Shown piece after piece: positions 13,967-46,248 of a stretch of 64,000 bases of DNA. The notes under the pieces were generated by a model, which saw only the letters and a program-made list of their open reading frames with translations, ran no database searches and was not told where the DNA came from. The stretch's first letter is position 1; every line of letters starts with the position of its first letter. The translations under genes were made by a program, and so were the position numbers. Source of the stretch: a virus (Duplodnaviria > Caudoviricetes); IMG/VR virus record IMGVR_UViG_3300020577_007013; one strand, written 5' to 3'.

Positions 13967-14604
13967 TCTTCTCCTGGAGTAATATCATATTCCTTATCAG
14001 GAATCTGAAGTTTTTCGATTTGGAGATATTTATTATCATTGGTGACTTTTTCTTCATGAGCAGTTAAAGCTTTCAAACAATTCTCCAATAGTCTTTGTTC
14101 ATCGTCTAAACGTTTTGTCTTGACAATAATGTCACGATTTATGAAAGCTCTAGATTCGAGTCTCGCAGAGACTTCGAAGATAATAGTCTTGAGAGTATTT
14201 GCATTCTCATCCCAATTCCTTTGATGAGCTTTAATTTGTTGTTCTTGAAGTTCAAGCCGATCTTTCAAGATGGCCAATTCCAAGACTCTTTCTTTGTCTT
14301 CTTTTTCGAACTTTTCTCTAAGAGCTCTTTGCTTACTCTTATGCATTTGTGACTGTTGAACAATTGTTCCTTCCAAAGAAGAGATCTTATCCTCTAACTC
14401 CTTTCTTTGTTTGTTCCATTCTACGTGATCTCTTTGACGAGTATCACTGCATTCTTTTCTTAAGTCATTGGCTTGTTTTTCTAGAGACTCTTTATAGTTT
14501 TTCTCTCGAATTTCTTGAGTTACCTGAAAGTCTTTCTTGAGTTTAAGCCCAAGATTTGTAAGTTTTCTGTGCTGACGTGTAGCCAGCCATCTTGTAAAAA
14601 ACAT
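13963..14604 (-). CDS. Coiled-coil hypothetical protein
   Basis: 213-aa charged ORF, TAATATA-N11-ATG. Confidence 0.7.
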   Translation of the reverse strand: MFFTRWLATRQHRKLTNLGLKLKKDFQVTQEIREKNYKESLEKQANDLRKECSDTRQRDHVEWNKQRKELEDKISSLEGTIVQQSQMHKSKQRALREKFEKEDKERVLELAILKDRLELQEQQIKAHQRNWDENANTLKTIIFEVSARLESRAFINRDIIVKTKRLDDEQRLLENCLKALTAHEEKVTNDNKYLQIEKLQIPDKEYDITPGEE

Positions 14605-14807
14605 CTTACCTAGAGTATATTATGAATTCTGGAGTCGACTAAATTTTCTCGATTTCTGTCGGTAAAGCTTGAAGTAATAGTTGGTGATTGTCTAAGTCGA
14701 GTACGTAGGACTCAGGATCTTCGTAGATATCGAAGATTTTTCCTTCCATTCCTTCTGCCTTAAAGAAAAAAGAGTTTTGTTTTTTGATTCTGATTCGATC
14801 GCCGATT

Positions 14808-15350
14808 TTAAGTGCCACTATAGATCAGTTCCCCATCTTTGAAACCTTTTTGGAGTAATTCATTCGCCATTTTTTCTGACTCGTGTTCAAGACCGGGAGC
14901 ATATCTTTCAGATTTATAATTACAGAAGACTATTTTGAGATCGATCGGTTCTTCTAAGATTCTTCCTAGAGATTTAAAGAATTCAAACTCGTTAGGATAC
15001 CTTAAATCAGAGATGCAAAATTTTGTAATTCCGTTCTCTATATGATTCCAAAAATGTATTTTCCATTGTTGAATCCAGAGATCTTCTCCAAGTTTTTCTC
15101 TCAAACCGTTTCCGATTCTCCTTAGAATGTCTCTTCCTAAACATTTTTTTCCTAAGAAGGAAATCTCAGTCACTTTGAACTTTTCGTATTCTTCATGATT
15201 TTCAGGTCTCCAATCTAAGATCATCCATGTAATTTCTCTAACCTCGTCTGCAAAATTAAGATGAAAGTATCCTTCCTCTTTTACAAGCTTCTGACAGTTA
15301 AAATCTTTTCCCGATCCCTGAACTCCTATAAATGGTCTGAGATATATCAT
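14808..15350 (-). CDS. Deoxynucleoside monophosphate kinase
   Basis: GVQGSGKD, NFADEVR, GRDILRRIG, ISDLRYPNE, HESE. Confidence 0.85.
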   Translation of the reverse strand: MIYLRPFIGVQGSGKDFNCQKLVKEEGYFHLNFADEVREITWMILDWRPENHEEYEKFKVTEISFLGKKCLGRDILRRIGNGLREKLGEDLWIQQWKIHFWNHIENGITKFCISDLRYPNEFEFFKSLGRILEEPIDLKIVFCNYKSERYAPGLEHESEKMANELLQKGFKDGELIYSGT

Positions 15351-30921: not shown

Positions 30922-32154
30922 CTAAAAGTCGGTCAAAACTTTAGGCCTAAACACAAGGCCACTAGAGATTATCTGCCTTACGACAGAGTCATCTTTACAT
31001 TTTCTCAAGATATTCAATGCTCCGTTTATGTCAGCATTGATCGTCTTGTTCGAAGACTCATCTAAATAGAGTCCTCTTTTAATTCGTCTTCCACAAAATT
31101 GGTCTTTTTTCTCCATCGATTCCATCGACAGGCTTGAGCTTTTTGATGTATAAGACTCTTCTTGCAGTGTGACTTTAATTCCTCTTTCTTCTCCTTTATA
31201 AGTTAGGTAGGTATTCAATTTCGCATAAGGAATTTGAACGAAATTTTGATTCGTCTTTGCTCCTAAATTTACAAACTTTTTCCAACCTTGATTGTAACCG
31301 ATTATAATTTCGTCTATGCCATTTTTGACGCAGTAGTCTATGAGTGACTTTGAAAGCTTGTGGAAATAGTCTCTAAAAATGTTCTCTCTTTTATTCCAGA
31401 GTCTTCGTATTCGTTTTGATGACTTTTGATTTTTAGGAAGCTCTGATTTTGCTTTTCCAATTTTTTTATTGAAGTAACGGTTCAGGCTCTTGACCTTTCC
31501 ACCTTTGACAATATGAGCTTCATTGGTAGAAGAATTCACAGTACTGAGAAGATTTGAGATGCCGTAGTCAATAGAAAGTTTTTCAGTTCCGTCTACTTGT
31601 ATTTTTTCTTCAAGGTCTTTATAGACGACTTCTAGTGAGAAGAATTCTCCTTTGGGAACAATTCTAATTTCCACTACGTCTTTTCTTTTCATATCCATCG
31701 TAAATGGAATTTCTAGAAATTTCGAGTTGACTGAGCTTTTCAAAATTTTTGGTATTGTTAATAATACTTTTTCTCCCATAATTCTGAAATGAGCTCTAGG
31801 AAAAATTGTATTAAACAGACTCTCTTTTTCTTTGTATTTAGGAAGACTTACTTTTCCAGAGTAAGATCCTTTATTTTTAATTTTAAGAAGAGAGAAAAAA
31901 CTTTTCATATCTCTTTCGACATATTTTAAGACTTGTTGAGCTGAGTGAGATGGGAGACTTTTATAGTGTTCATTAGTTTTCAATAAATGATAGTTTTCCA
32001 CATAAGTCAAGTATTTTCCGGTATTTATGAAGTGCTGCCGGACGTTATAGAGTCCACAATTATAGAGAGCTCTTGAATTGTAGCAGAGAAATTCCAGTAC
32101 TTCAAATTCTTTTTTCGAGACTTTCTTAATTCGACAACTTAGTGTTTTGTACAC
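30922..32154 (-). mobile_element. tnpB: Solo TnpB (IS200/IS605-family RNA-guided endonuclease), no adjacent tnpA
   Basis: SRALYNCGLY, LPKYK, SIDYGISNL (RuvC-I), DYFHKLS, IGYNQGWK, QNFVQIPY, QEESYTSK, INADINGALNILRK (RuvC-III). Confidence 0.92.
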
Positions 32155-37228: not shown

Positions 37229-37627
37229 TTAGTTCAGTATGTCCAAAAGTTTCTCTCTATATCTGTTGTCTCTTTTCATGTAGAATGGACTTATCTCTAT
37301 GGCTCTGAATCCTTCAGGAAGTTCAAAGTCATACTCTACTAAGTCAAGATCTTTCTTTTTCTTGAGAATCAGTTGTATGAATTCCTCTTCCTCAATGCCT
37401 TCGTAGTTATTTGTGGAAGTGACAAGAAAAGTTGACTTATCTTCTGTAGTGAAAATGGTATTGTTTTGGTAGAAATCTCCAAATCCTATGTTCTGTCTAA
37501 ATCTCGTTGCATAGAAAAAGAGTTTAGGATTATCTCTGAATTTGAACTTAAGACATGAGCAGTCAGCAATTGATCCTTGATATCTTCTTACATCTATACA
37601 TTGAACAAATCCAGAAAGGTCACGCAT
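37229..37627 (-). CDS. Hypothetical protein with shared C-terminal helix (YREKLLDIL)
   Basis: 132-aa ORF. Confidence 0.65.
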   Translation of the reverse strand: MRDLSGFVQCIDVRRYQGSIADCSCLKFKFRDNPKLFFYATRFRQNIGFGDFYQNNTIFTTEDKSTFLVTSTNNYEGIEEEEFIQLILKKKKDLDLVEYDFELPEGFRAIEISPFYMKRDNRYREKLLDILN

Positions 37628-38081
37628 CTTTTACCAACTCCATGACTTTATGATGGTAAGAAATTGGAAGAAGCAATTTGTTGATAGGAAAAATCTGAAA
37701 TCCTTGAGACTCAATCTCCTTGTCAAGATTCTTTGCTCCTCTCATATAAGGATCTTTGATAATGGAAGCAACTTTTGTAAAGTCTGTAAAGCTGACATGA
37801 CTGGAAATAAAGATTCCTTCTTTGGTTACTCCCACTGAAGTGACTGAGATTTTGAGAGAAGATCCTAATGTGTCAAATGGTTCGCAGATCACAAGATAGT
37901 TTTTCAATTGTCTGAAGTCTGGATGATTGACAGGTTGATCTGTAAAAGAGTATCTCCCAAAATCAACTGCAAACTCCTTGAATTTATTGTCTGTTTGAAA
38001 TTCTTTGGATTGAAAATGATTCGGGAAAAAATACTTCTCCAGTACTTTTTCAAGAATGTCAAGTACTAGAGTTGGGTTCAT
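37620..38081 (-). CDS. Hypothetical protein with shared C-terminal helix (YHHKVMELV)
   Basis: 153-aa ORF. Confidence 0.65.
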   Translation of the reverse strand: MNPTLVLDILEKVLEKYFFPNHFQSKEFQTDNKFKEFAVDFGRYSFTDQPVNHPDFRQLKNYLVICEPFDTLGSSLKISVTSVGVTKEGIFISSHVSFTDFTKVASIIKDPYMRGAKNLDKEIESQGFQIFPINKLLLPISYHHKVMELVKDA

Positions 38082-38084
38082 TTG

Positions 38085-39098
38085 TTATAGTCTCTTTGTT
38101 CTTTTCTTCTTAAAACAATTTGCATTGTAAAAGTCTGTCATATTCTTTCTCATCCAAGCAGCAGGACTCTGTATTTCGTTATCTAAGACTTTCCTTAATT
38201 TAGGAATCCATCCTAGCTTAGAAAAGTCTATTCCAGAATTTAGAATCTTAGATTCCAGTCTCTTGATTTTTTCATACTTAAGTTTTTTATTCTCTTGTCT
38301 TTTATGTAGTTTTCTTCCTCTACAAGTTCCTAGTCTTTGTTTTTCTATGATCTCCTGAATATCATATTTAATTGACTTTTTTTCTTTCTCTTTTAGAAAA
38401 TTCAAGAACTTTTGAAATTCTTCATTGGGATTTTTATAAAAATTTACTCCAGCAATTCTGTAAATTATCCATCCGTCTGACTCTAACTCTAAGTCTCTTT
38501 TTTCATCATGAAGAATTTGTTTTTCCTTTAAATGCTGTTTTCCGTCCATCTCTAAGTCGATCTTAAATTCTAGAATAGCAAAGTCTAGAAAGTATCTCCC
38601 ACATCTGAATTGAAAGACATGATCTATTTTATTTTGAATAAGAAGAGACTCTAAGATTGATTCCAATCTAGACTTATTATTTATCATTTTCTTAGAATGA
38701 TACCAATTATTTCCTCTCCCTTCTCTATGAGCTTTTTTATGAGACTCTGAGAGTCTTCTTTTTGTCTCGTCACTTTTTGATAATTTTCTAGTAGGATTCT
38801 CTATCCAATTTTTTTTAAGTGACTCACTAAGCTTCTTTTTGATAAGGTCAGATTTCTCTTTTCCGTAAAATTCTTCCATAGAAAGTCCTTTTCTGGACTT
38901 AATCTGAATTCCGAGTCTTTCAAAATATTCTTTTTTTCTCCTTTTAGGAAATTTTCCTTTACAAGACTTTGAATGTATTGCCCTATTATGCTTTATCAGA
39001 AAATTACATTTCAGACATTTCCAATCTTCTGTGTAGAGATGTCTGTATTCGTCTTGTCTTTTTTCTCTTAGTTGTGTCCTTTTATTTCCAGATTGCAT
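38085..39098 (-). CDS. Free-standing homing-type endonuclease (DUF559/Vsr-like nuclease with NUMOD3-like repeats)
   Basis: CLKC..H...C finger, ETKRRLSESHK, YFLDFA..IDLEMDGKQH, DEKRD..L..DGWIIYRI. Confidence 0.8.
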   Translation of the reverse strand: MQSGNKRTQLREKRQDEYRHLYTEDWKCLKCNFLIKHNRAIHSKSCKGKFPKRRKKEYFERLGIQIKSRKGLSMEEFYGKEKSDLIKKKLSESLKKNWIENPTRKLSKSDETKRRLSESHKKAHREGRGNNWYHSKKMINNKSRLESILESLLIQNKIDHVFQFRCGRYFLDFAILEFKIDLEMDGKQHLKEKQILHDEKRDLELESDGWIIYRIAGVNFYKNPNEEFQKFLNFLKEKEKKSIKYDIQEIIEKQRLGTCRGRKLHKRQENKKLKYEKIKRLESKILNSGIDFSKLGWIPKLRKVLDNEIQSPAAWMRKNMTDFYNANCFKKKRTKRL

Positions 39099-39121
39099 TG
39101 TTTATTAAGTTATAGTAGTAT

Positions 39122-39160
39122 AAAACGAGGCCCTAAGATATAGCTTTGTACCAGGGCCTC
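39122..39160 (-). terminator. Intrinsic terminator closing the structured RNA
   Basis: GAGGCCCTGG...CTTAGGGCCTC-GTTTTA. Confidence 0.7.
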
Positions 39161-39602
39161 AACCATTTCCATGGTCATAGGCAATTAATGAGATAACTTT
39201 TCCATTTAACTGTAAGCTAATTTTTATTAGAGACGTCATAGCATTCGACTATTTCGGCCCTCATACAACAATGGGACTTATTGTATCAGGCGCCGAAATT
39301 GGGAGTTCAACCCAAACCTTCTCTTGATTTGTCTTACAGACTCGATTTATCTCTACCTACTATACTAAGATTAGGGTGAATAATCTGAGTTTCATAAAGT
39401 CCATCAACCATTTCTGATTGACGCGTTTACCTTTCGCCATCTCCACGTTCAGAATACCTTTTTCAGATACTCTCAGCGTGGAGACCTCTTTTGACAGAGG
39501 AAGGACTTTTTAATTCAGTCTTATTTTCAATCTTAGTCTGGGCGACGGTTCCTATGAACCGTCTCACCCTTTGCTCAACCTAGATAGCGAATCTAGTTGA
39601 GC
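39122..39602 (-). ncRNA. Large structured ncRNA with two circularly permuted tRNA-like domains
   Basis: Non-coding ~480 nt with many exact stems; T-arm/acceptor/D-arm modules at 39396-39509 and 39229-39324 (see findings). Confidence 0.8.
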
Positions 39603-39610
39603 TAATTTTC

Positions 39611-40339
39611 TCATCCGAAGATGAACTTCATTATGTCATTTCCAATTGTAGATCTTTCAACCTCAACTGAATTTGCTTCCTCTCTCGCAACCTTGACAGC
39701 TTTAGAAAGCTTGTCAATTTTATTTAAGAGGTCATTCTTTCTGTCCTGAGTTGTCGTACCAGAAAAACGAATTGTTGTGAACTGACCGACCACTTCGTCT
39801 CTGTAGAGAATTTCTGATTGTTCAGGATGTTTGTCAGTAGCTTTAGCTTTTGTAAAACTGAAAGGTTGCTTTAACGTTCTGTTTGTGCTTCTACCTTCAG
39901 TTTTGAAAAGACCACCGTCTCCTAAAGTCCATTTTTCAGCAGGATCTTGAACTGGGAATTTGTCGACAAAGGTCTTCAGATCTACCAACTGCTTCTCTAA
40001 GAAGATCAGATGAGTTGCAGGAACATCAGAAGCAATTACAGTACCGTCTACTGTAATGTTAGCTTTCGCTTTACAGTTTCCGTTATCGAGAGTTGCGACA
40101 ATGTTGATCAGATCGACAGTAGAGTCGTATGCATCTTTAATAGATTGCTCTACTGTGTACTGAACGATCTTAGACTCCGGTGGAAGAGTATCTTTCGAGT
40201 CGTCTGCTAAGGGCTTGTAAGTCTTATTGAATCCTTCGAAAAGATCTGATTTTTGGAGTTTGTGATACACCTCAGAGATCTTCGAAGTTCTTCTTGATTT
40301 TTCACCATTTGCAATGGCGATTACTTGTGTTAATTTCAT
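39611..40339 (-). CDS. Conserved hypothetical protein (recalled as DUF7873-like), upstream of the ncRNA
   Basis: KLTQVIA, KTYKP, LPPESKIVQ, VPATHLIFLEKQL, ATDKHPEQ, FSG, AVKVAREEANS; family name from memory. Confidence 0.8.
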   Translation of the reverse strand: MKLTQVIAIANGEKSRRTSKISEVYHKLQKSDLFEGFNKTYKPLADDSKDTLPPESKIVQYTVEQSIKDAYDSTVDLINIVATLDNGNCKAKANITVDGTVIASDVPATHLIFLEKQLVDLKTFVDKFPVQDPAEKWTLGDGGLFKTEGRSTNRTLKQPFSFTKAKATDKHPEQSEILYRDEVVGQFTTIRFSGTTTQDRKNDLLNKIDKLSKAVKVAREEANSVEVERSTIGNDIMKFIFG

Positions 40340-40361
40340 AGTAAATAAATATATTTGACTT

Positions 40362-40574
40362 TCAGATCTCTGAAACTATTTGTCGAATTTTCTCTTTATA
40401 GAGAACTTCGGTGCTCGTCTCTTCCTTAGTTCTGACTATGGTGACTTTAGGCCATTCATAAGAGAGGCTTCCTCTATTGATACTAGAGGCTCCGATTCTG
40501 ACTATTTTCAATACGTTTTCAGGCATTATCTGAAAGTTAGATTTAATGAATTCTTCTGAGAACATATTCCTCAT
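40362..40574 (-). CDS. Small protein, C-terminal helix family
   Basis: Ends YKEKIRQIVSEI. Confidence 0.65.
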   Translation of the reverse strand: MRNMFSEEFIKSNFQIMPENVLKIVRIGASSINRGSLSYEWPKVTIVRTKEETSTEVLYKEKIRQIVSEI

Positions 40575-40711
40575 TTCTCGTCGACTATCTTTTTGATTTT
40601 CTCTTTAAAATCATTTTCTACTTTGCTAGGTTTTTTCTCTTTAGGATCCAGACTATCATTGTCATTAGCCTTAATCCATTTCATAAAGTCTACGAATGTG
40701 TTAAGCCTCAT
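40571..40711 (-). CDS. Small protein, C-terminal helix family (not in ORF track)
   Basis: MRLNTFVDFMKWIKANDNDSLDPKEKKPSKVENDFKEKIKKIVDEK; overlaps both neighbours. Confidence 0.6.
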   Translation of the reverse strand: MRLNTFVDFMKWIKANDNDSLDPKEKKPSKVENDFKEKIKKIVDEK

Positions 40712-40949
40712 TCAAAATTTCTTTGACCTTTTCTTTATAAGTGGATTCTACTGCAGAGACCGAAACCGGAGAAGAATAGACTCTGTCAATGAAGTATATC
40801 GCATCGTCAGGAGCTACCATCGGCCATTCAGTAATCAATGACTTAGCTACTAAATGAGTAGAATAGATTCTACCATTTTTATTTGATTTCTTCAAGAATC
40901 TCCTTGAGTTTGTCACAGTAAACTTTCTTATGAGCTTCTCTTGTGTCAT
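40701..40949 (-). CDS. Small protein, C-terminal helix family
   Basis: Ends YKEKVKEILNEA; start may lie further downstream. Confidence 0.6.
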   Translation of the reverse strand: MTQEKLIRKFTVTNSRRFLKKSNKNGRIYSTHLVAKSLITEWPMVAPDDAIYFIDRVYSSPVSVSAVESTYKEKVKEILNEA

Positions 40950-41082
40950 TTGTAAGAGTGACTTCAGCCATAGTAGTATAAGAGTATCCTATACTATTGA
41001 CTTTTCCCATCTTGACACCTCCGTAGAACATTTCAAATTGTCCTGAACTCAGGTCTAGAAATCCGTGAGAACTACTTGACAA
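40879..41082 (-). CDS. Small protein, C-terminal helix family
   Basis: Ends YCDKLKEILEEIK. Confidence 0.6.
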   Translation of the reverse strand: MSSSSHGFLDLSSGQFEMFYGGVKMGKVNSIGYSYTTMAEVTLTNDTREAHKKVYCDKLKEILEEIK

Positions 41083-41284
41083 TGTCTTCTACCTTCTTTA
41101 CATATTCTTTTTCAAGTTCGGTTTTTTCTTTGATCTCACCTTGAACCCATTCCATAGTATATAGCTCCATGGCTTTCTGAACATGTGGATTATTGAAATA
41201 TAAATATTGGCTCTCTAAAAGTTCAGCGGCTTTTCTAGCTTTACTGTCATCTAGGAAATATTTCTTGATCTTGTCAATCCACAT
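41072..41284 (-). CDS. Small protein, C-terminal helix family
   Basis: Ends YVKKVEDIVK. Confidence 0.65.
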   Translation of the reverse strand: MWIDKIKKYFLDDSKARKAAELLESQYLYFNNPHVQKAMELYTMEWVQGEIKEKTELEKEYVKKVEDIVK

Positions 41285-41522
41285 CTTCGATAATTTTCTC
41301 TATTTCATCCTTGTAGTTAGTTTTCATTTTTGGATCTAACTTAACTCTTGGTTGTGGATATTGTCTCATGAATCCTGTGCAATCTATCCAGTCATCGAAG
41401 ATAAGTTGCATCTCAGATCTAGTGACTCCACCAAAGTCCATGCTATTATTGATCGAGACTATTCCACCGATCTTTCGACCATTCTGATCGAACACTCCTC
41501 CATCTCTGAGTTCAATTATCAT
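41274..41522 (-). CDS. Small protein, C-terminal helix family
   Basis: Ends YKDEIEKIIEDVD. Confidence 0.65.
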   Translation of the reverse strand: MIIELRDGGVFDQNGRKIGGIVSINNSMDFGGVTRSEMQLIFDDWIDCTGFMRQYPQPRVKLDPKMKTNYKDEIEKIIEDVD

Positions 41523-41685
41523 CTAACATGTCCAAAAGCTTTTGCTTCTGTTCTTCTTCTTGAAGTTTTCTATTGAGTCGCTTTAGATTTTTGACTTCAT
41601 CCATTTGATGAATCAGCTCATTGACCTTTTCTAAATAGTCGGAGTCGCCTTCATTGTCAGACTTTGAGAATTTACTTGTCCTCAT
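41512..41685 (-). CDS. Small protein with internal helix motif (not in ORF track)
   Basis: MRTSKFSKSDNEGDSDYLEKVNELIHQMDEVKNLKRLNRKLQEEEQKQKLLDMLDDN. Confidence 0.55.
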   Translation of the reverse strand: MRTSKFSKSDNEGDSDYLEKVNELIHQMDEVKNLKRLNRKLQEEEQKQKLLDMLDDN

Positions 41686-42163
41686 AGGTCTCTTCTGTGT
41701 CGATTTTTAGTTCAGTCATTCCACTAGGCTTTCCATCTAACATCATTGTTGGAGGACTTATAAAAGGTAGCTGAGTTATTGGAAGATAAGGTGCATGAAT
41801 GTAGCCTTCAGTTAATTCAGAAAGTTCCATGACTTCAGGCTCTTTCTTTTTATTCTTGAAATTTGACATAAGAGCTTTGACATCCAGCTCTCCGTCTTTA
41901 TTGAAAATTTCTTTCTTTTTGTATTCTCTCTTAAAGAGATCTTTGAATTTTTCCCAAAGAGACTTTTTACGTGGAGAGTAATGCTTAAGTTTTCCGTACA
42001 TTCTGAAGAAGTCATCAGTCATTAATTCTTCATGAGTCTTCTCTTTTCTTTTCCAGAGTTTTTTCTGGAGTTTTTTCCAAAAAGACTTAGGCTTAGGTTC
42101 TACATACTGAAGACCAGGTTCTCCTAAATCTATGTAAGCTTTTATTTTCGAAATTTCAGACAC
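41672..42163 (-). CDS. Hypothetical protein with GYIHAPYLP motif
   Basis: 163-aa ORF; repeated KSFWKKL/KSLWEKF. Confidence 0.65.
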   Translation of the reverse strand: MSEISKIKAYIDLGEPGLQYVEPKPKSFWKKLQKKLWKRKEKTHEELMTDDFFRMYGKLKHYSPRKKSLWEKFKDLFKREYKKKEIFNKDGELDVKALMSNFKNKKKEPEVMELSELTEGYIHAPYLPITQLPFISPPTMMLDGKPSGMTELKIDTEETYEDK

Positions 42164-42396
42164 TAAAAAAGATCCTTGATTTTTTGCTTGTACGAAGTCA
42201 ACAATTCAGTTGGATTATAATAGAGAGGCATTGATAGATTTTTAAGCCACTCAATTACTCTCTTGTCTCTTTCTCTTTGTCTAAGCTTATGTTCTTCAGC
42301 TATAGCATTTACGAGCATAAGCTCTATGTCTCCTATCTTAGAGAATGGACTTGAGTCTACCAACATAGTCATCCTTAACTTTACTTTTTCTTTCAT
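42163..42396 (-). CDS. Small protein, C-terminal helix family
   Basis: Ends YKQKIKDLF. Confidence 0.6.
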   Translation of the reverse strand: MKEKVKLRMTMLVDSSPFSKIGDIELMLVNAIAEEHKLRQRERDKRVIEWLKNLSMPLYYNPTELLTSYKQKIKDLF

Positions 42397-42545
42397 CTTC
42401 TACTACAGTTACAAAGCCATAGCCGATAGGGTCTTCATCAAAGAAATTCTTAGGAACTCCGGTAACTTTTGCTACCAGGTCGTAGAGTTCTCTGATCTTC
42501 TCATCTGTAAGTGATTCGTCTTTATTCAAATGATTGACCTGAAAG
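42338..42545 (-). CDS. Small protein, C-terminal helix family (start uncertain)
   Basis: Ends YVGRLKSIL; the ORF-track 5' extension overlaps the vWA gene. Confidence 0.5.
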
Positions 42546-43935
42546 CTAACTTCGCTTGTGAAAGATCTTCGATATTTCCTGTATCCATGAAAGACAAAGA
42601 CTCTGAAAGTTTGTTGCAATTTTCAATGTTACCCATATCTTCCAAGAATACGAAGTGGAATTTCTTTCCTTGTACTCTATGCTTAATAAGTTCATTCATG
42701 GTAGGGATTCTGATATCCTCTGTACCGTCTGTTACCATAATGATGTCCGACTTATCAAGACCGTCTACTTCATTCTTGTCAATGTCCTTCACAGCATAAG
42801 TGAGAGCCATGTCCATGTCAGTACCACCATCTGGATGTGTATTGAGAATGAAGTCAAGAAATGTATTCCAATGAGCTCTTCCTTTTAGAACGAACAAGCT
42901 TCCTAAACGTCCTTCAAACCATCTGCAATAGAATGTCGTTCCGTCTTTCATGGCTTTCTTCGCTAAAGCGATTGCCACTGCTTTAATGAACATTTGACGA
43001 TTGTTTTCATGAGTGGATCCTGAACGATCTAACAAAGCATAGAGACATTGTTTAAGATCTTTTCTCTCTTTGTATTTCATGACTCTCAATGATTTGGTCA
43101 TGATCTTACGGTCAAGAACATCATCAATTGTAACTTCGAACTTGACTGCCTTGCTTACATCGTTCATTTTCTTCATCTTAGAATAGTGAAGATTGGAAGA
43201 AATGTTTTCAGTCTCGTAGAGTTTTCCTCTCTTCGATTGACTGAAGAATGATGTCTCCAGATTTTTAGCGATCTCAAAAATGGAAGCATTTTCATTAGAG
43301 AGAAGTTGCTGAACCATTTGCTTGATCTTGAGCTTCTTGTCCAAGATCTCTTTATAGGTCCTATCAAAGTGACCCATATCTTTTGTTGAACCTGTATTTT
43401 CGGTTTTACCGTCATCTTCAGGAACATCGTATGAGTAGTTCATTATGTGCTCGAATAAGAATCCGAATGAAGAGAAGATCTTGGATACATTTTGTCCAGT
43501 TGATCCTCCACCCATACCACCGTTAGGCTGACGACCAGCTTTTTGATTTTCAATGATAGCTGAGAAGATCTGACAAACGAAGTCAAATTTCTCCTCTAAA
43601 GATAGAGACTTGGATTCAATGTACTGCTCAACAATATCAGACTCAGCAAAATGAATAATGTCCATTTTGAGTTTGAACATCTGAGCTTCAGTGTGCTCAA
43701 TATTATTGACTTCACCTTTTTTGTATCTGTCGATCGCATTTCTTGAAATCTCCAGATCTGATGACATATACTTGAAACAATTTGTCTTCCCTTGAGCTAT
43801 GAGACAAAGTGTATCTTCAAGAACCTCTTTTGGAAGTGCTGAAAGAGAAGGGTACTTAGCGTACCCCTTGTTCACCATGTCGGTATAGAATGTAGGGAGA
43901 TCTATCTTTATGAATCTCATTTTACTTCTTATCAT
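42526..43935 (-). CDS. vWA domain protein, ViaA-like
   Basis: LLDRSGST, GGTDMDMAL, DIIMVTDG; directly downstream of a MoxR ATPase. Confidence 0.85.
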   Translation of the reverse strand: MIRSKMRFIKIDLPTFYTDMVNKGYAKYPSLSALPKEVLEDTLCLIAQGKTNCFKYMSSDLEISRNAIDRYKKGEVNNIEHTEAQMFKLKMDIIHFAESDIVEQYIESKSLSLEEKFDFVCQIFSAIIENQKAGRQPNGGMGGGSTGQNVSKIFSSFGFLFEHIMNYSYDVPEDDGKTENTGSTKDMGHFDRTYKEILDKKLKIKQMVQQLLSNENASIFEIAKNLETSFFSQSKRGKLYETENISSNLHYSKMKKMNDVSKAVKFEVTIDDVLDRKIMTKSLRVMKYKERKDLKQCLYALLDRSGSTHENNRQMFIKAVAIALAKKAMKDGTTFYCRWFEGRLGSLFVLKGRAHWNTFLDFILNTHPDGGTDMDMALTYAVKDIDKNEVDGLDKSDIIMVTDGTEDIRIPTMNELIKHRVQGKKFHFVFLEDMGNIENCNKLSESLSFMDTGNIEDLSQAKLAFRSII

Positions 43936-45094
43936 CCATTGGGAAGATCTCGTCTTCTGAAAGTCCAGATTGTGAGACCTTATCTTCGATCAATTTCTTA
44001 AGATCTTTTGCTTTCTCAAGAACTGATTTTTGGCAATTAGCTTGAGTCCATTCAGAGATTTTATCTTTGATATGTGAAGCGAGAGCTGCAAGCATTCTTG
44101 TTCTCTCAAGCTTATCATCATATTTGAGAATCTTAGTGTGAAGAGCTTTCTCAAATTTCATGAGCTCCATTCCCATTGCCATTGATTTTTCTGATTTGTC
44201 AAAGACAGCATCGAATTTGTCTGAGTTCTTGATGTCTCCACCATTCACAAGTGCATATTTAATGCTCTTGAGATTCTCAACTTCAATTGTCTCTTGACCT
44301 TTGAGGAATGCATCAGCTTTAGCGACAAGCAACATTTTATTTTTCTTTCTCGGACTGATACCGATACTTGTCTGCTGTGTGTACTCATCAAGAATTGCAT
44401 CGAACATGATGAGAAGCATATCAGAGAATTGAGGCTTGTATTTCTCAAATTCTTCGTGAAGAATCTTCAGATCATGGAAAGCAAATTTCGGATATTCTTC
44501 GTCAGAGATTCCTCTTAAGAAGTTGGAGAACATTTTGATTCTGCTTTCTTGTTTTACCAAGTCAGCAACTTCAGATGTGAAGAGAATACGATCATAAACA
44601 GCTCGAAGTTCTTTCTCCTCCTCTCTCTCTTGATTCGTTGTCATGATAGCTGTGAGTAGCTTTGCTGGAATTGTTCTGCTCTGTCTCGTAGATGATCTCT
44701 CGTTCAAGATCTCATTTGCAGAAACGAGAAGCTCTTCAGAAGCATTAAAGAATTCGTCCAATCTCGCAAAGTCTGTTGTGAGAAGTGAACCTTCAATGTT
44801 ATGAACGATGTTACCTTTCTTGAATTCCTCAATTGACTGAGGACCCATGATGTATTGGTCGTCCATGAATCTTGTGAACTGTTGTTCAAAGACTGTAGCT
44901 CCTGTAAAGCCTTTAAGAATCTTCTGACTTAGAAGTGTCTTCGCTGTACCTGGAAGTCCTTTTAGAAGCACATGCTCCTTAATGAGAATTGCCAATTTTA
45001 TTTGGTTTGTCTCATACTCTCTTTCAGAGAAAAAGTCCTCCATCTTTTTGAAATAATCTTGATAGTCTTGTTTAAGTTTTTTTACTTCCTTCAC
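43922..45094 (-). CDS. MoxR/RavA-family AAA+ ATPase
   Basis: EHVLLKGLPGTAKT, LDEFFNA, NEILNER, AVYDRI, ISPRK. Confidence 0.9.
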   Translation of the reverse strand: MKEVKKLKQDYQDYFKKMEDFFSEREYETNQIKLAILIKEHVLLKGLPGTAKTLLSQKILKGFTGATVFEQQFTRFMDDQYIMGPQSIEEFKKGNIVHNIEGSLLTTDFARLDEFFNASEELLVSANEILNERSSTRQSRTIPAKLLTAIMTTNQEREEEKELRAVYDRILFTSEVADLVKQESRIKMFSNFLRGISDEEYPKFAFHDLKILHEEFEKYKPQFSDMLLIMFDAILDEYTQQTSIGISPRKKNKMLLVAKADAFLKGQETIEVENLKSIKYALVNGGDIKNSDKFDAVFDKSEKSMAMGMELMKFEKALHTKILKYDDKLERTRMLAALASHIKDKISEWTQANCQKSVLEKAKDLKKLIEDKVSQSGLSEDEIFPMDDKK

Positions 45095-45114: not shown

Positions 45115-45615
45115 TTATATAACGTCTTCTAGAATCGACAACAAAAGCTTGCTGTCTTCTCTCTTTTGTTGTTTATAGTGTTCGATGAACTTCGAACCTT
45201 CTTCAAATTCGTTAATGTATCTTCTCATATAGTCTGATTTTCCATGAGAAACTATGTATTCATCATAGAATTCTCTCGTATTTATAATGTCAAGAGAATC
45301 TGTAGGAATTGGAAGCAAGCCATACACAATGTATTCACTTTTTGCTTTTCTATTGTCTTCAACTGGGCAGTTTGTCTGAAACAAATAATTGAGTCCTTCT
45401 GCTCTAGAAGGAACTAAAGTCTGAAAATATTCTATATTGCTTCTAGAGTAAGTCTGACAGAAAGCTGTAGAGCTTAAATCATTGTGATGAAAGTTCCTAA
45501 CATAGAATTCATCTGTAGGAAGCTCTAGATCTCTGACCATTGTCCTCACATATTCGTAATGTGAATGTGTGAGAAAGTTTTTGCCCACACCTAGAAATAA
45601 TTTCTCTAGTGTCAT
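45115..45615 (-). CDS. Hypothetical protein
   Basis: 166-aa ORF. Confidence 0.65.
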   Translation of the reverse strand: MTLEKLFLGVGKNFLTHSHYEYVRTMVRDLELPTDEFYVRNFHHNDLSSTAFCQTYSRSNIEYFQTLVPSRAEGLNYLFQTNCPVEDNRKAKSEYIVYGLLPIPTDSLDIINTREFYDEYIVSHGKSDYMRRYINEFEEGSKFIEHYKQQKREDSKLLLSILEDVI

Positions 45616-46248
45616 TCAATCAGCTAAGAGATCGTCAAGAGAGATTTGCTTCTTGATATGTTTCTTGAGCTCTTCGTCTTCTTTTCCTTCGAGTCCTGTT
45701 GTAGTGCCAGCTTCACCTTCAGTATGTTGGAAAAGATACCGACCGTTCGAAACGCATTCTGAGTACTTGTTGATGAAGCAACCTACAAACTGTGAATCAT
45801 TTTTGCAACCATCGCAAGAGTCAGAAACGATTTGAATTTGATCAGGCTTTCTTACTCCATTGTATCCTACAAACGTCTTTTCATCTTCAGCTATCTTTGC
45901 AGTCTTTAAAAGATTCTCAGCTTGCTCTTCTGAAAGACCCATTGCCATAAGAGATTCTTTAGTCTCTTCAGGAATTTGAGCTGCTGCAGCTTCTTCATCA
46001 ATGTCTCCTGCTGCTACTTCTTCTTGATTTTCTTCGAAGTTTTCTTCTTCATGAAAGTCTTCCAAGACTTCAGCTTCTTGAGCTTTTTCTAAATTGATTT
46101 GTTTTTGTTGTTTAATCTCATCAGAAAGTGGTTCCCAAAGTTCATAGTCTGCATTTCCTAAACAGAATTTTTTAGCATCTATGCCTTTCGAACAATCTTT
46201 ATTTGCGTACCAACCGCAAGTGAGACAGGATTTGTTTTGCTGAGCCAT
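45616..46248 (-). CDS. Acidic hypothetical protein with two Cys clusters
   Basis: CLTC..C..C and CDGC..C..C around a Glu-rich linker. Confidence 0.7.
   Translation of the reverse strand: MAQQNKSCLTCGWYANKDCSKGIDAKKFCLGNADYELWEPLSDEIKQQKQINLEKAQEAEVLEDFHEEENFEENQEEVAAGDIDEEAAAAQIPEETKESLMAMGLSEEQAENLLKTAKIAEDEKTFVGYNGVRKPDQIQIVSDSCDGCKNDSQFVGCFINKYSECVSNGRYLFQHTEGEAGTTTGLEGKEDEELKKHIKKQISLDDLLAD

Follow-up and report, generated by a model that had tools for sequence, protein, structure and literature searches.

What do the proteins of a gene array have in common when it is only near their ends that they look alike, and where does the rest of each protein come from? The question is raised by a 64,000-nucleotide stretch (the window) of IMG/VR record IMGVR_UViG_3300020577_007013, part of a 253,865-bp contig from an uncultured phage. 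Its minus strand carries ten overlapping mini-genes, m1–m10, behind the gene for a vWA protein. We call these genes the array, the short motif that their products share the tag, and the part of each product in front of it the head. The first mini-gene overlaps the vWA stop codon by 4 nt and the others follow with overlaps of 1–29 nt; two further tagged genes lie 2.3 kb downstream of the array, and 11 of the 12 products carry the full tag. Profile comparisons show that at least five heads derive from conserved segments of the phage's own major capsid protein (MCP) or portal protein, the latter identified as probable.

We described the tag by the pattern [YF]-x-x-[KR(E)]-[ILV]-x-x-[IL]-[ILVF]. 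The ten C-terminal motifs listed in the initial annotation, together with an internal YLEKVNELI and a truncated ...TYEDK*, are all present as it gave them. Across 249 minus-strand open reading frames (ORFs) of at least 30 amino acids (aa) the pattern matches 18 times, with 11 matches inside 37229–42619; 10 of these 11 end 0–4 residues before the stop codon, and the other, in m4, is internal, 32 aa before the stop. One further match, FLKELKEIF in NAPRTase, lies inside a Pfam domain and was not counted as a tag. When a non-overlapping set was used, the motif fell within the last 14 aa of 8 of 115 ORFs, whereas 2000 residue shuffles averaged 0.18 such ORFs and never exceeded 3. A hidden Markov model (HMM) of the tag scored 11 ORFs at 8.3–15.1 bits, the next best ORF in ~85 kb of this phage reaching 4.7; among 13,157 ORFs from 80 other phage loci its best score was 8.6, in 33-aa junk ORFs. 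The tag described in the initial annotation is thus confirmed.

Aligned over 20 tags, the motif looks like an N-capped amphipathic helix of 10–13 residues, [DSTN]-[YF]-x-x-[KR]-[ILV]-x-x-[IL]-[ILVF]. In 14 of the 20 the residue before the aromatic (position 0) is one of D, S, T and N, which fits a helix N-cap, and the hydrophobic stripe runs through positions 1, 5, 8, 9 and sometimes 12. Hydrophobic moments are 1.4–2.2, at or above the background of 1.38 ± 0.49. Nineteen tags have K or R at position 4 and only 10 have an acidic residue (D or E) at position 7; positions 8–9 are aliphatic, with F in 2 of the 20, and a conserved Q is absent. The residues at or after the tag's end differ from member to member (SIL, DLF, EDVD, K, EEIK, NEA, DEK, SEI). 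Among 183 comparisons of a residue shared by two tags, 40% have the same codon, whereas codon usage predicts 46%. Because shared codons are not above expectation, the signal lies at the protein level, which excludes a DNA-level repeat, recent gene conversion and promoter or ribosome-site explanations.

The tagged genes are given below, with the ratio of non-synonymous to synonymous substitution (dN/dS) or the identity relative to the ortholog in the diverged strain L016.

42338–42529, minus strand: m1, 63 aa, TTG start, ORF open to 42619; D-YVGRLKSIL at 42341–42367, ending at the stop; tag YANRLKSIL in L016, dN/dS 0.20.
42163–42366, minus strand: m2, 67 aa; S-YKQKIKDLF at 42166–42192; dN/dS 0.22.
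41672–42163, minus strand: m3, 163 aa, lysine-rich; truncated tag start at its end, ...TYEDK*; ending unchanged in L016, dN/dS 0.13.
41512–41685, minus strand: m4, 57 aa; internal D-YLEKVNELI at 41611–41637, leucine-rich C-terminus QKQKLLDMLDDN; 84% identity, dN/dS 0.06.
41274–41522, minus strand: m5, 82 aa; N-YKDEIEKII at 41289–41315; tag region rebuilt in L016 as ...HKERMKRD-YQEKIKNVL, dN/dS 0.21.
41072–41284, minus strand: m6, 70 aa; E-YVKKVEDIV at 41078–41104.
40879–41082, minus strand: m7, 67 aa, TTG start, absent from the assembly's gene calls; V-YCDKLKEIL at 40894–40920; dN/dS 0.46.
40701–40895, minus strand: m8, 64 aa, ORF open to 40949 (82 aa); T-YKEKVKEIL at 40713–40739; dN/dS 0.11.
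40571–40711, minus strand: m9, 46 aa; D-FKEKIKKIV at 40583–40609; 77% identity.
40362–40574, minus strand: m10, 70 aa; L-YKEKIRQIV at 40374–40400; dN/dS 0.18.
37620–38081, minus strand: distal tagged protein, 153 aa; S-YHHKVMELV at 37632–37658; no family match.
37229–37627, minus strand: distal tagged protein, 132 aa; R-YREKLLDIL at 37235–37261; no family match.

All ten mini-genes are present in L016/L017 in identical order, and every tag there is kept by pattern-preserving changes, such as YKEKVKEIL to YELKISQII or YVKKVEDIV to FIEKVKDIV. The array genes show dN/dS of 0.06–0.46 at a dS of ~1. These low ratios and the kept tags indicate that the mini-genes are translated and under purifying selection; at the level of coding-sequence comparison, selection is shown to preserve the genes and, as a protein feature, the pattern of the tag. 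The modular build that had been proposed, a variable head on a constant C-terminal helix, gains support from this protein-level conservation, and the tight start/stop overlaps behind the vWA gene were likewise found and are kept in L016/L017. The array evolves much faster than its upstream neighbour: the vWA gene (compared with L016:757–2109) has a dN/dS of 0.01 at a dS of ~1.2 and 98% protein identity, and its dN of 0.012 compares with 0.09–0.37 for the mini-genes, which change 8–30 times faster at non-synonymous sites.

Two local features of the array deserve mention. At the m3/m4 junction (41672–41685), m4 starts in another frame 14 nt before the m3 stop, an arrangement kept in L016, as are the truncated tag of m3 and the full internal tag of m4. 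Either a frameshift fusion or an earlier insertion into a tag could account for this. A looser, leucine-rich second tail ends m4 and also the products of 45115–45615 (SKLLLSILEDVI) and 45616–46248 (KKQISLDDLLAD), three cases only.

Where do the heads come from? We recovered the head module, which encodes proteins of 673, 496 and 646 aa, by walking along related contigs. Homologs of the 496-aa protein carry PF07068, its AlphaFold2 (AF2) model (predicted local distance difference test, pLDDT, 84.9) matches the capsid proteins of P1, S6 and T4, and we identify it as a T4 gp23-type MCP. The second parent is encoded upstream of the MCP gene:

L098:7877–9817: likely portal protein, 646 aa.

This protein scored 19 bits against Portal_T4 (PF07230), whose cut-off is 22.9, and a search of the PDB gave no sequence match to it; we regard it as probably the portal. 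The 673-aa protein (L009:6189–8210), probably a protease-scaffold fusion, has a weak N-terminal match to prohead protease (S77) followed by a long coiled coil with repeats of the DRKLME(S/A)D(I/L)(N/K)QF type.

We built a family profile from 79 members of the MCP family (hmmsearch), and also used two-sequence profiles. The heads with a recognizable parent are as follows; E-values with the family profile refer to the window copy and then to the L016 copy.

m10 head: MCP 73–114 (N-arm); family profile 1.4e-13 and 1e-15; two-sequence profile 6e-17.
m8 head: MCP 103–133 (hairpin); family profile 4.3e-9 and 3e-8; two-sequence profile 4e-13.
m2 head: MCP 298–317 (spine helix); family profile 2.1e-4 and 6e-4; two-sequence profile 1e-4.
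m7 head: MCP 279–299 (strand and short helix); family profile 1.1e-3 and 9e-3; two-sequence profile 5.5e-4.
m6 head: likely portal, residues ~55–109; two-sequence profile 5.6e-6.

The MCP matches of m10, m8, m2 and m7 recur in L016 at colinear positions, and tblastn recovers the m10 match as well (5e-12). With phmmer, the window and L016 copies of m6 hit the same portal stretch (2.6e-4 and 2.1e-5, respectively). The initial annotation had taken the N-terminal parts to be unrelated to one another; this does not hold, since five heads copy capsid or portal segments and those of m8 and m10 overlap on one capsid region. No parent was found for m3, m4, m5, m9 or the two distal tagged proteins by sequence and profile comparison with the head proteins, and m1 shows a weak, non-significant likeness to portal residues 361–382. 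A search for relatives of m3 found none, the ESM Atlas yielding no usable match.

Each MCP match spans 18–45 of the 496 residues, within products of 64–70 aa. Given such short spans, m10, m8, m2 and m7 are fragments without the complete HK97-type fold that forms capsomers. An exhaustive search with m10 against 1.8 billion representatives returned a 70-aa ortholog as its sole relative, so m10 has no sampled MCP that resembles it much more closely than the phage's own does. The heads are 50–60% similar to many members of the MCP family, about the same as to the phage's own MCP; because this similarity is spread evenly over the family, the heads are old copies that keep family-conserved residues rather than recent captures.

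These results also bear on whether the tag could be a by-product of something else, be it composition, a DNA- or RNA-level signal (ribosome-binding site or promoter) within the overlaps, nascent-peptide control of coupled translation, or a second capsid gene in decay. The genome is AT-rich and its proteins are rich in K, E and I, and tag codons sometimes place GAG or AAGGAG just 5' of the next start. However, shuffling yields 0.18 motifs where 8–11 are observed, shared codons are not in excess, the m10 tag is kept though the next gene is 22 nt away, and a stop distance of 0–4 aa is a poor fit to a nascent-peptide effect. Because the fragments are ordered non-colinearly with the capsid gene, a decayed copy of it is excluded; all pieces are also under purifying selection. 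We therefore give a by-product origin hardly any credence.

Which parts of the parent proteins were copied? In the MCP model, they correspond to the N-arm, a hairpin (108–126), a strand and short helix (277–295) and the spine helix (301–330). The N-arm has low model confidence in the monomer, as would be expected for a segment that touches neighbouring subunits. Conservation across MCP residues 81–120 is 0.70–0.72, compared with a mean of 0.55, and the segments copied by m10, m2 and m7 lie at the 97th, 89th and 84th percentile of conservation. The family profile aligns MCP 86–125, weakly (E 0.0055), with T4 gp23 94–133. Because this is the first quarter of gp23, the stretch shared by m10 and m8 would fall where Gol lies, the most conserved part of gp23, which binds EF-Tu and triggers the Lit protease (reviewed in PMC3014915).

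It is tempting to speculate about what such copies are for. Capsid and portal proteins are among the chief targets of bacterial immune sensors. Taking the array as a whole, we tentatively favor reading its products as mini-proteins that mimic head segments on a common docking or address helix and that serve as bait or decoys. The helix would be a transferable module, for docking or as an address, that a single shared partner reads. The heads would be competitive mimics, which could bind the normal binders of capsid and portal segments while being incapable of capsid building, and their purpose would be to bait or decoy host factors that sense conserved virion proteins. Candidate targets would include EF-Tu and defences that sense capsid or portal, of the Lit/Gol type or others. 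A role in head assembly, by interfering with it or controlling it, is a close second and nearly as likely; we prefer bait or decoy because it is the most conserved stretches that were copied, because capsid and portal are both present, and because the array is lineage-specific and fast-evolving.

Several points weigh against this preferred reading. The partner of the tag and that of the heads are hypothetical, and a fragment with its trigger epitope intact might switch a sensor on instead of blocking it. No parent was detected for five of the array heads (m1, m3, m4, m5 and m9) or for either distal protein, so mimicry may be partial. The portal identity of the 646-aa protein comes from a sub-threshold Pfam match, and the MCP and portal sequences were taken from the near-identical or 97%-identical strains L008, L009 and L098. 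Finally, positive selection is not indicated by dN/dS.

A broader proposal also has decoys in it: the tag might belong to a proteome-wide C-terminal address code in huge phages, with the array delivering to one hub a library of mimics taken from the most conserved, and hence most recognizable, parts of capsid and portal, the Gol-equivalent stretch among them. Should this hold, the phage would encode a bait or decoy system without a described precedent, directed at host sensors that recognise conserved virion proteins. We find this rather doubtful.

Given that the heads originate from head proteins, the helix could instead be a C-terminal head-loading signal, a counterpart of the T4 capsid targeting sequence (CTS), with the mini-proteins packed in the prohead core and perhaps injected. 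The phage does have N-terminal Y-K-x-x-F-x-E starts that resemble the T4 targeting sequence, in four examples (MERYKSFFE, MGKYKSYFEE, MPYRKFIEF and MTPYKKLFEA; at window 6767 on the plus strand and at L009:892, 1785 and 8264). The C-terminal tag has in common with them Y at position 1, hydrophobicity at position 5 and, in many cases, K at 2 and an acidic residue at 7. In T4, moreover, the internal proteins are diverse defence proteins with only the targeting sequence in common (PMC3012670). Yet position 4, K or R in the C-terminal tags, is hydrophobic in the N-terminal ones, which sit at the opposite protein end, and a conserved protease site lies neither before nor after the tag. The array lies among genes of replication and nucleotide metabolism, 33 kb from the head module. 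T4-like starts also occur in the relatives G001 and G003 (six each; none in G004), and in G001 and G003 the C-terminal tag is not enriched. On balance we consider head loading unlikely, though the T4-like N-terminal starts make it a serious rival.

The position of the array suggests another partner. The initial annotation proposed that the helix recruits targets to a common partner and named the AAA-vWA machine among the candidates; the protein encoded just beyond m10 was another to be checked. The genes concerned, with the one that separates them from the distal tagged genes, are:

43922–45094, minus strand: MoxR-type AAA+ ATPase, 390 aa, upstream of the array; Pfam bpMoxR 2.8e-26 and AAA_5 2.4e-15; NCBIfam RavA 2.9e-19, below the RavA cut-off.
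42526–43935, minus strand: vWA protein, 469 aa, also upstream of the array; relatives labelled 'vWA' or 'ChlD'.
39611–40339, minus strand: DUF7873 protein, 242 aa, 22 nt after m10; Pfam PF25283 1e-82.
38085–39098, minus strand: homing-endonuclease-like gene, separating the array and DUF7873 from the two distal tagged genes; Pfam MTES_1575 6e-11 and DUF559 2e-9.

Known MoxR-vWA pairs, such as RavA-ViaA and CbbQ-CbbO, act on substrates bound by the vWA partner. The mini-proteins might thus dock onto the ATPase-vWA machine, or onto DUF7873, which would remodel or recruit their targets, and the run of overlaps that begins at the vWA stop codon and is kept in L016/L017 agrees with such a link. Comparison with other loci does not support it. 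Three vWA relatives (L013, L015 and L103, at 41%, 41% and 38% identity) keep the MoxR-vWA pair without the array; an unrelated protein of ~200 aa follows vWA in each of them, and when we compared DUF7873 as its possible counterpart the two proved unrelated. None of 80 other DUF7873 phage loci has a tag array either, and two tagged genes lie beyond DUF7873 and the endonuclease gene. Recruitment to the MoxR-vWA machine or to DUF7873 therefore looks decidedly unlikely. Prediction of a complex of m10 with vWA, MoxR residues 185–390 and DUF7873, which scored 0.37, compared with 0.43 when vWA was swapped for an unrelated protein, speaks neither for nor against it. The upstream gene pair is of the RavA-ViaA or CbbQ-CbbO kind, but the array is not its conserved companion. 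In each of five IMG/VR phages whose MCP belongs to the family of this phage's MCP, two of these genomes being complete, a single copy of the N-arm segment was found, in the capsid gene, and ~360 kb from three of the records showed no enrichment of the tag. From its absence in relatives and its faster evolution than vWA, we conclude that, as far as these loci can tell, the array is a lineage-specific accessory.

The only candidate that a search for shared C-termini picked from the 80 DUF7873 loci was L040, a 336-kb huge phage with two clusters of mini-proteins (L040:2319–3243 and 14081–15313). These are whole-length paralogs of ~80 aa that start MKVLILKKEDWQIPE... and have glycine-rich ends, unrelated to the array tag, and we rejected them as a tag array. 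DUF7873 itself is a well-conserved large-phage family, with 40–50% identity over its full length; 99 relatives were found, and it occurs on at least 367 IMG/VR contigs. The protein's AF2 model, a confident one (pLDDT 88.8), has no fold match in the PDB by Foldseek, and the protein's C-terminus, DIMKFIFG* (family consensus L-x-Y-I-F), is reminiscent of T4-type clamp-binding tails. Directly after it comes a 512-nt gene-free gap (39099–39610), for which an Rfam search gave no match. The tagged block may once have been continuous and been split by the arrival of the homing-endonuclease-like gene.

A shared degron or protease-adaptor handle, timing the removal of small proteins, would account for a tag near the C-terminus of so many of them, and SspB and ssrA are precedents for short C-terminal handles. 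The last 0–4 residues nevertheless vary freely and one tag is internal, and we judge a degron to be very improbable. In particular, the tag is not an ssrA-type degron, in which the last residues are conserved and end in a free carboxylate: here they differ in every member.

The wider setting can be described briefly. The window has a G+C content of ~36% and nearly all of its genes are on the minus strand. An identical contig from a separate read set (L001) spans the array region. Other neighbours of the array are NAPRTase and a cREC_REC protein. Further off, 30922–32154 is a 410-aa ORF that the assembly's gene caller gives as 359 aa with OrfB_IS605 / Cas12f-like TnpB domains; judged by these domains, it looks like a transposon-type nuclease within the phage. 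An Rfam scan of the window found one tRNA and nothing else, and scans for ACTAA and sigma-70 promoters found no usable promoter. The 9.4-kb array region had no match among GenBank phages in a DNA search, nor had the capsid protein as a tblastn query, and the mini-proteins and two distal tagged proteins matched nothing in PHROGs, Pfam or NCBIfam.

How does the array compare with known systems? Among interaction motifs that could be confused with the tag, the PIP-box reads Q-x-x-[ILM]-x-x-[FY]-[FY], and phage clamp-binding tails are of the L-D-F-L-F type at the extreme C-terminus. Neither describes it, as the tag has no conserved Q, is aliphatic at positions 8–9 and lies at a varying distance from the C-terminus.

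The T4 CTS is a closer parallel: one short, aromatic-initial amphipathic peptide on many diverse small proteins, several of them anti-defence (PMC3012670). Unlike the array tag, which is at or near the C-terminus and internal in m4, the CTS is N-terminal and is removed after a glutamate. The array tag differs further in its K or R at position 4, its hydrophobic pair at 8–9 and its lack of a conserved cleavage site; the prohead-protease motif is [LI]-x-E, whereas an acidic residue at position 7 is found in only half of the tags.

The encapsulation peptides of microcompartments (PMC4594438, PMC12339742) and the cargo-loading peptides of encapsulins are similar in being short terminal amphipathic helices with a poorly conserved linker, which can be carried by unrelated proteins and are recognised by a single shell or hub. 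By its sequence pattern the array tag, too, is a terminal amphipathic helix. Shell families of microcompartments or encapsulins were not among the Pfam hits of the proteins scanned, a set short of a whole-genome search. The cargo-peptide consensus of encapsulins does not fit the array tag.

For the heads, the nearest precedent is Gol of T4 gp23 (PMC3014915), which shows that binding of a host protein needs no more than a short part of this capsid region. Like Gol, the stretch copied by m10 and m8 belongs to the most conserved first quarter of the capsid protein, as aligned to gp23 94–133. Gol, however, is part of full gp23 and triggers abortive infection, whereas the array stretch is encoded separately by the phage itself and fused to a tag. 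The tag itself thus resembles known address peptides, and the fragment-mimic heads have no published counterpart that we found: our literature searches turned up no account of tagged mini-genes made from capsid or portal fragments, and nowhere in a catalogue of 268 phage anti-defence proteins does the word capsid occur.

In their logic the heads recall microProteins of the Id and LITTLE ZIPPER type, small proteins from an interaction segment of a larger protein that engage its partners without its function. Those proteins are eukaryotic, have no shared address tag and do not form an array, and for the array such a mode of action is hypothetical. The shared helix would be a compact address label whose reader would explain a whole class of huge-phage small proteins, and separate, selected copies of the best-conserved capsid and portal stretches on a common handle would represent an unexplored answer to recognition, or a means of steering head assembly.

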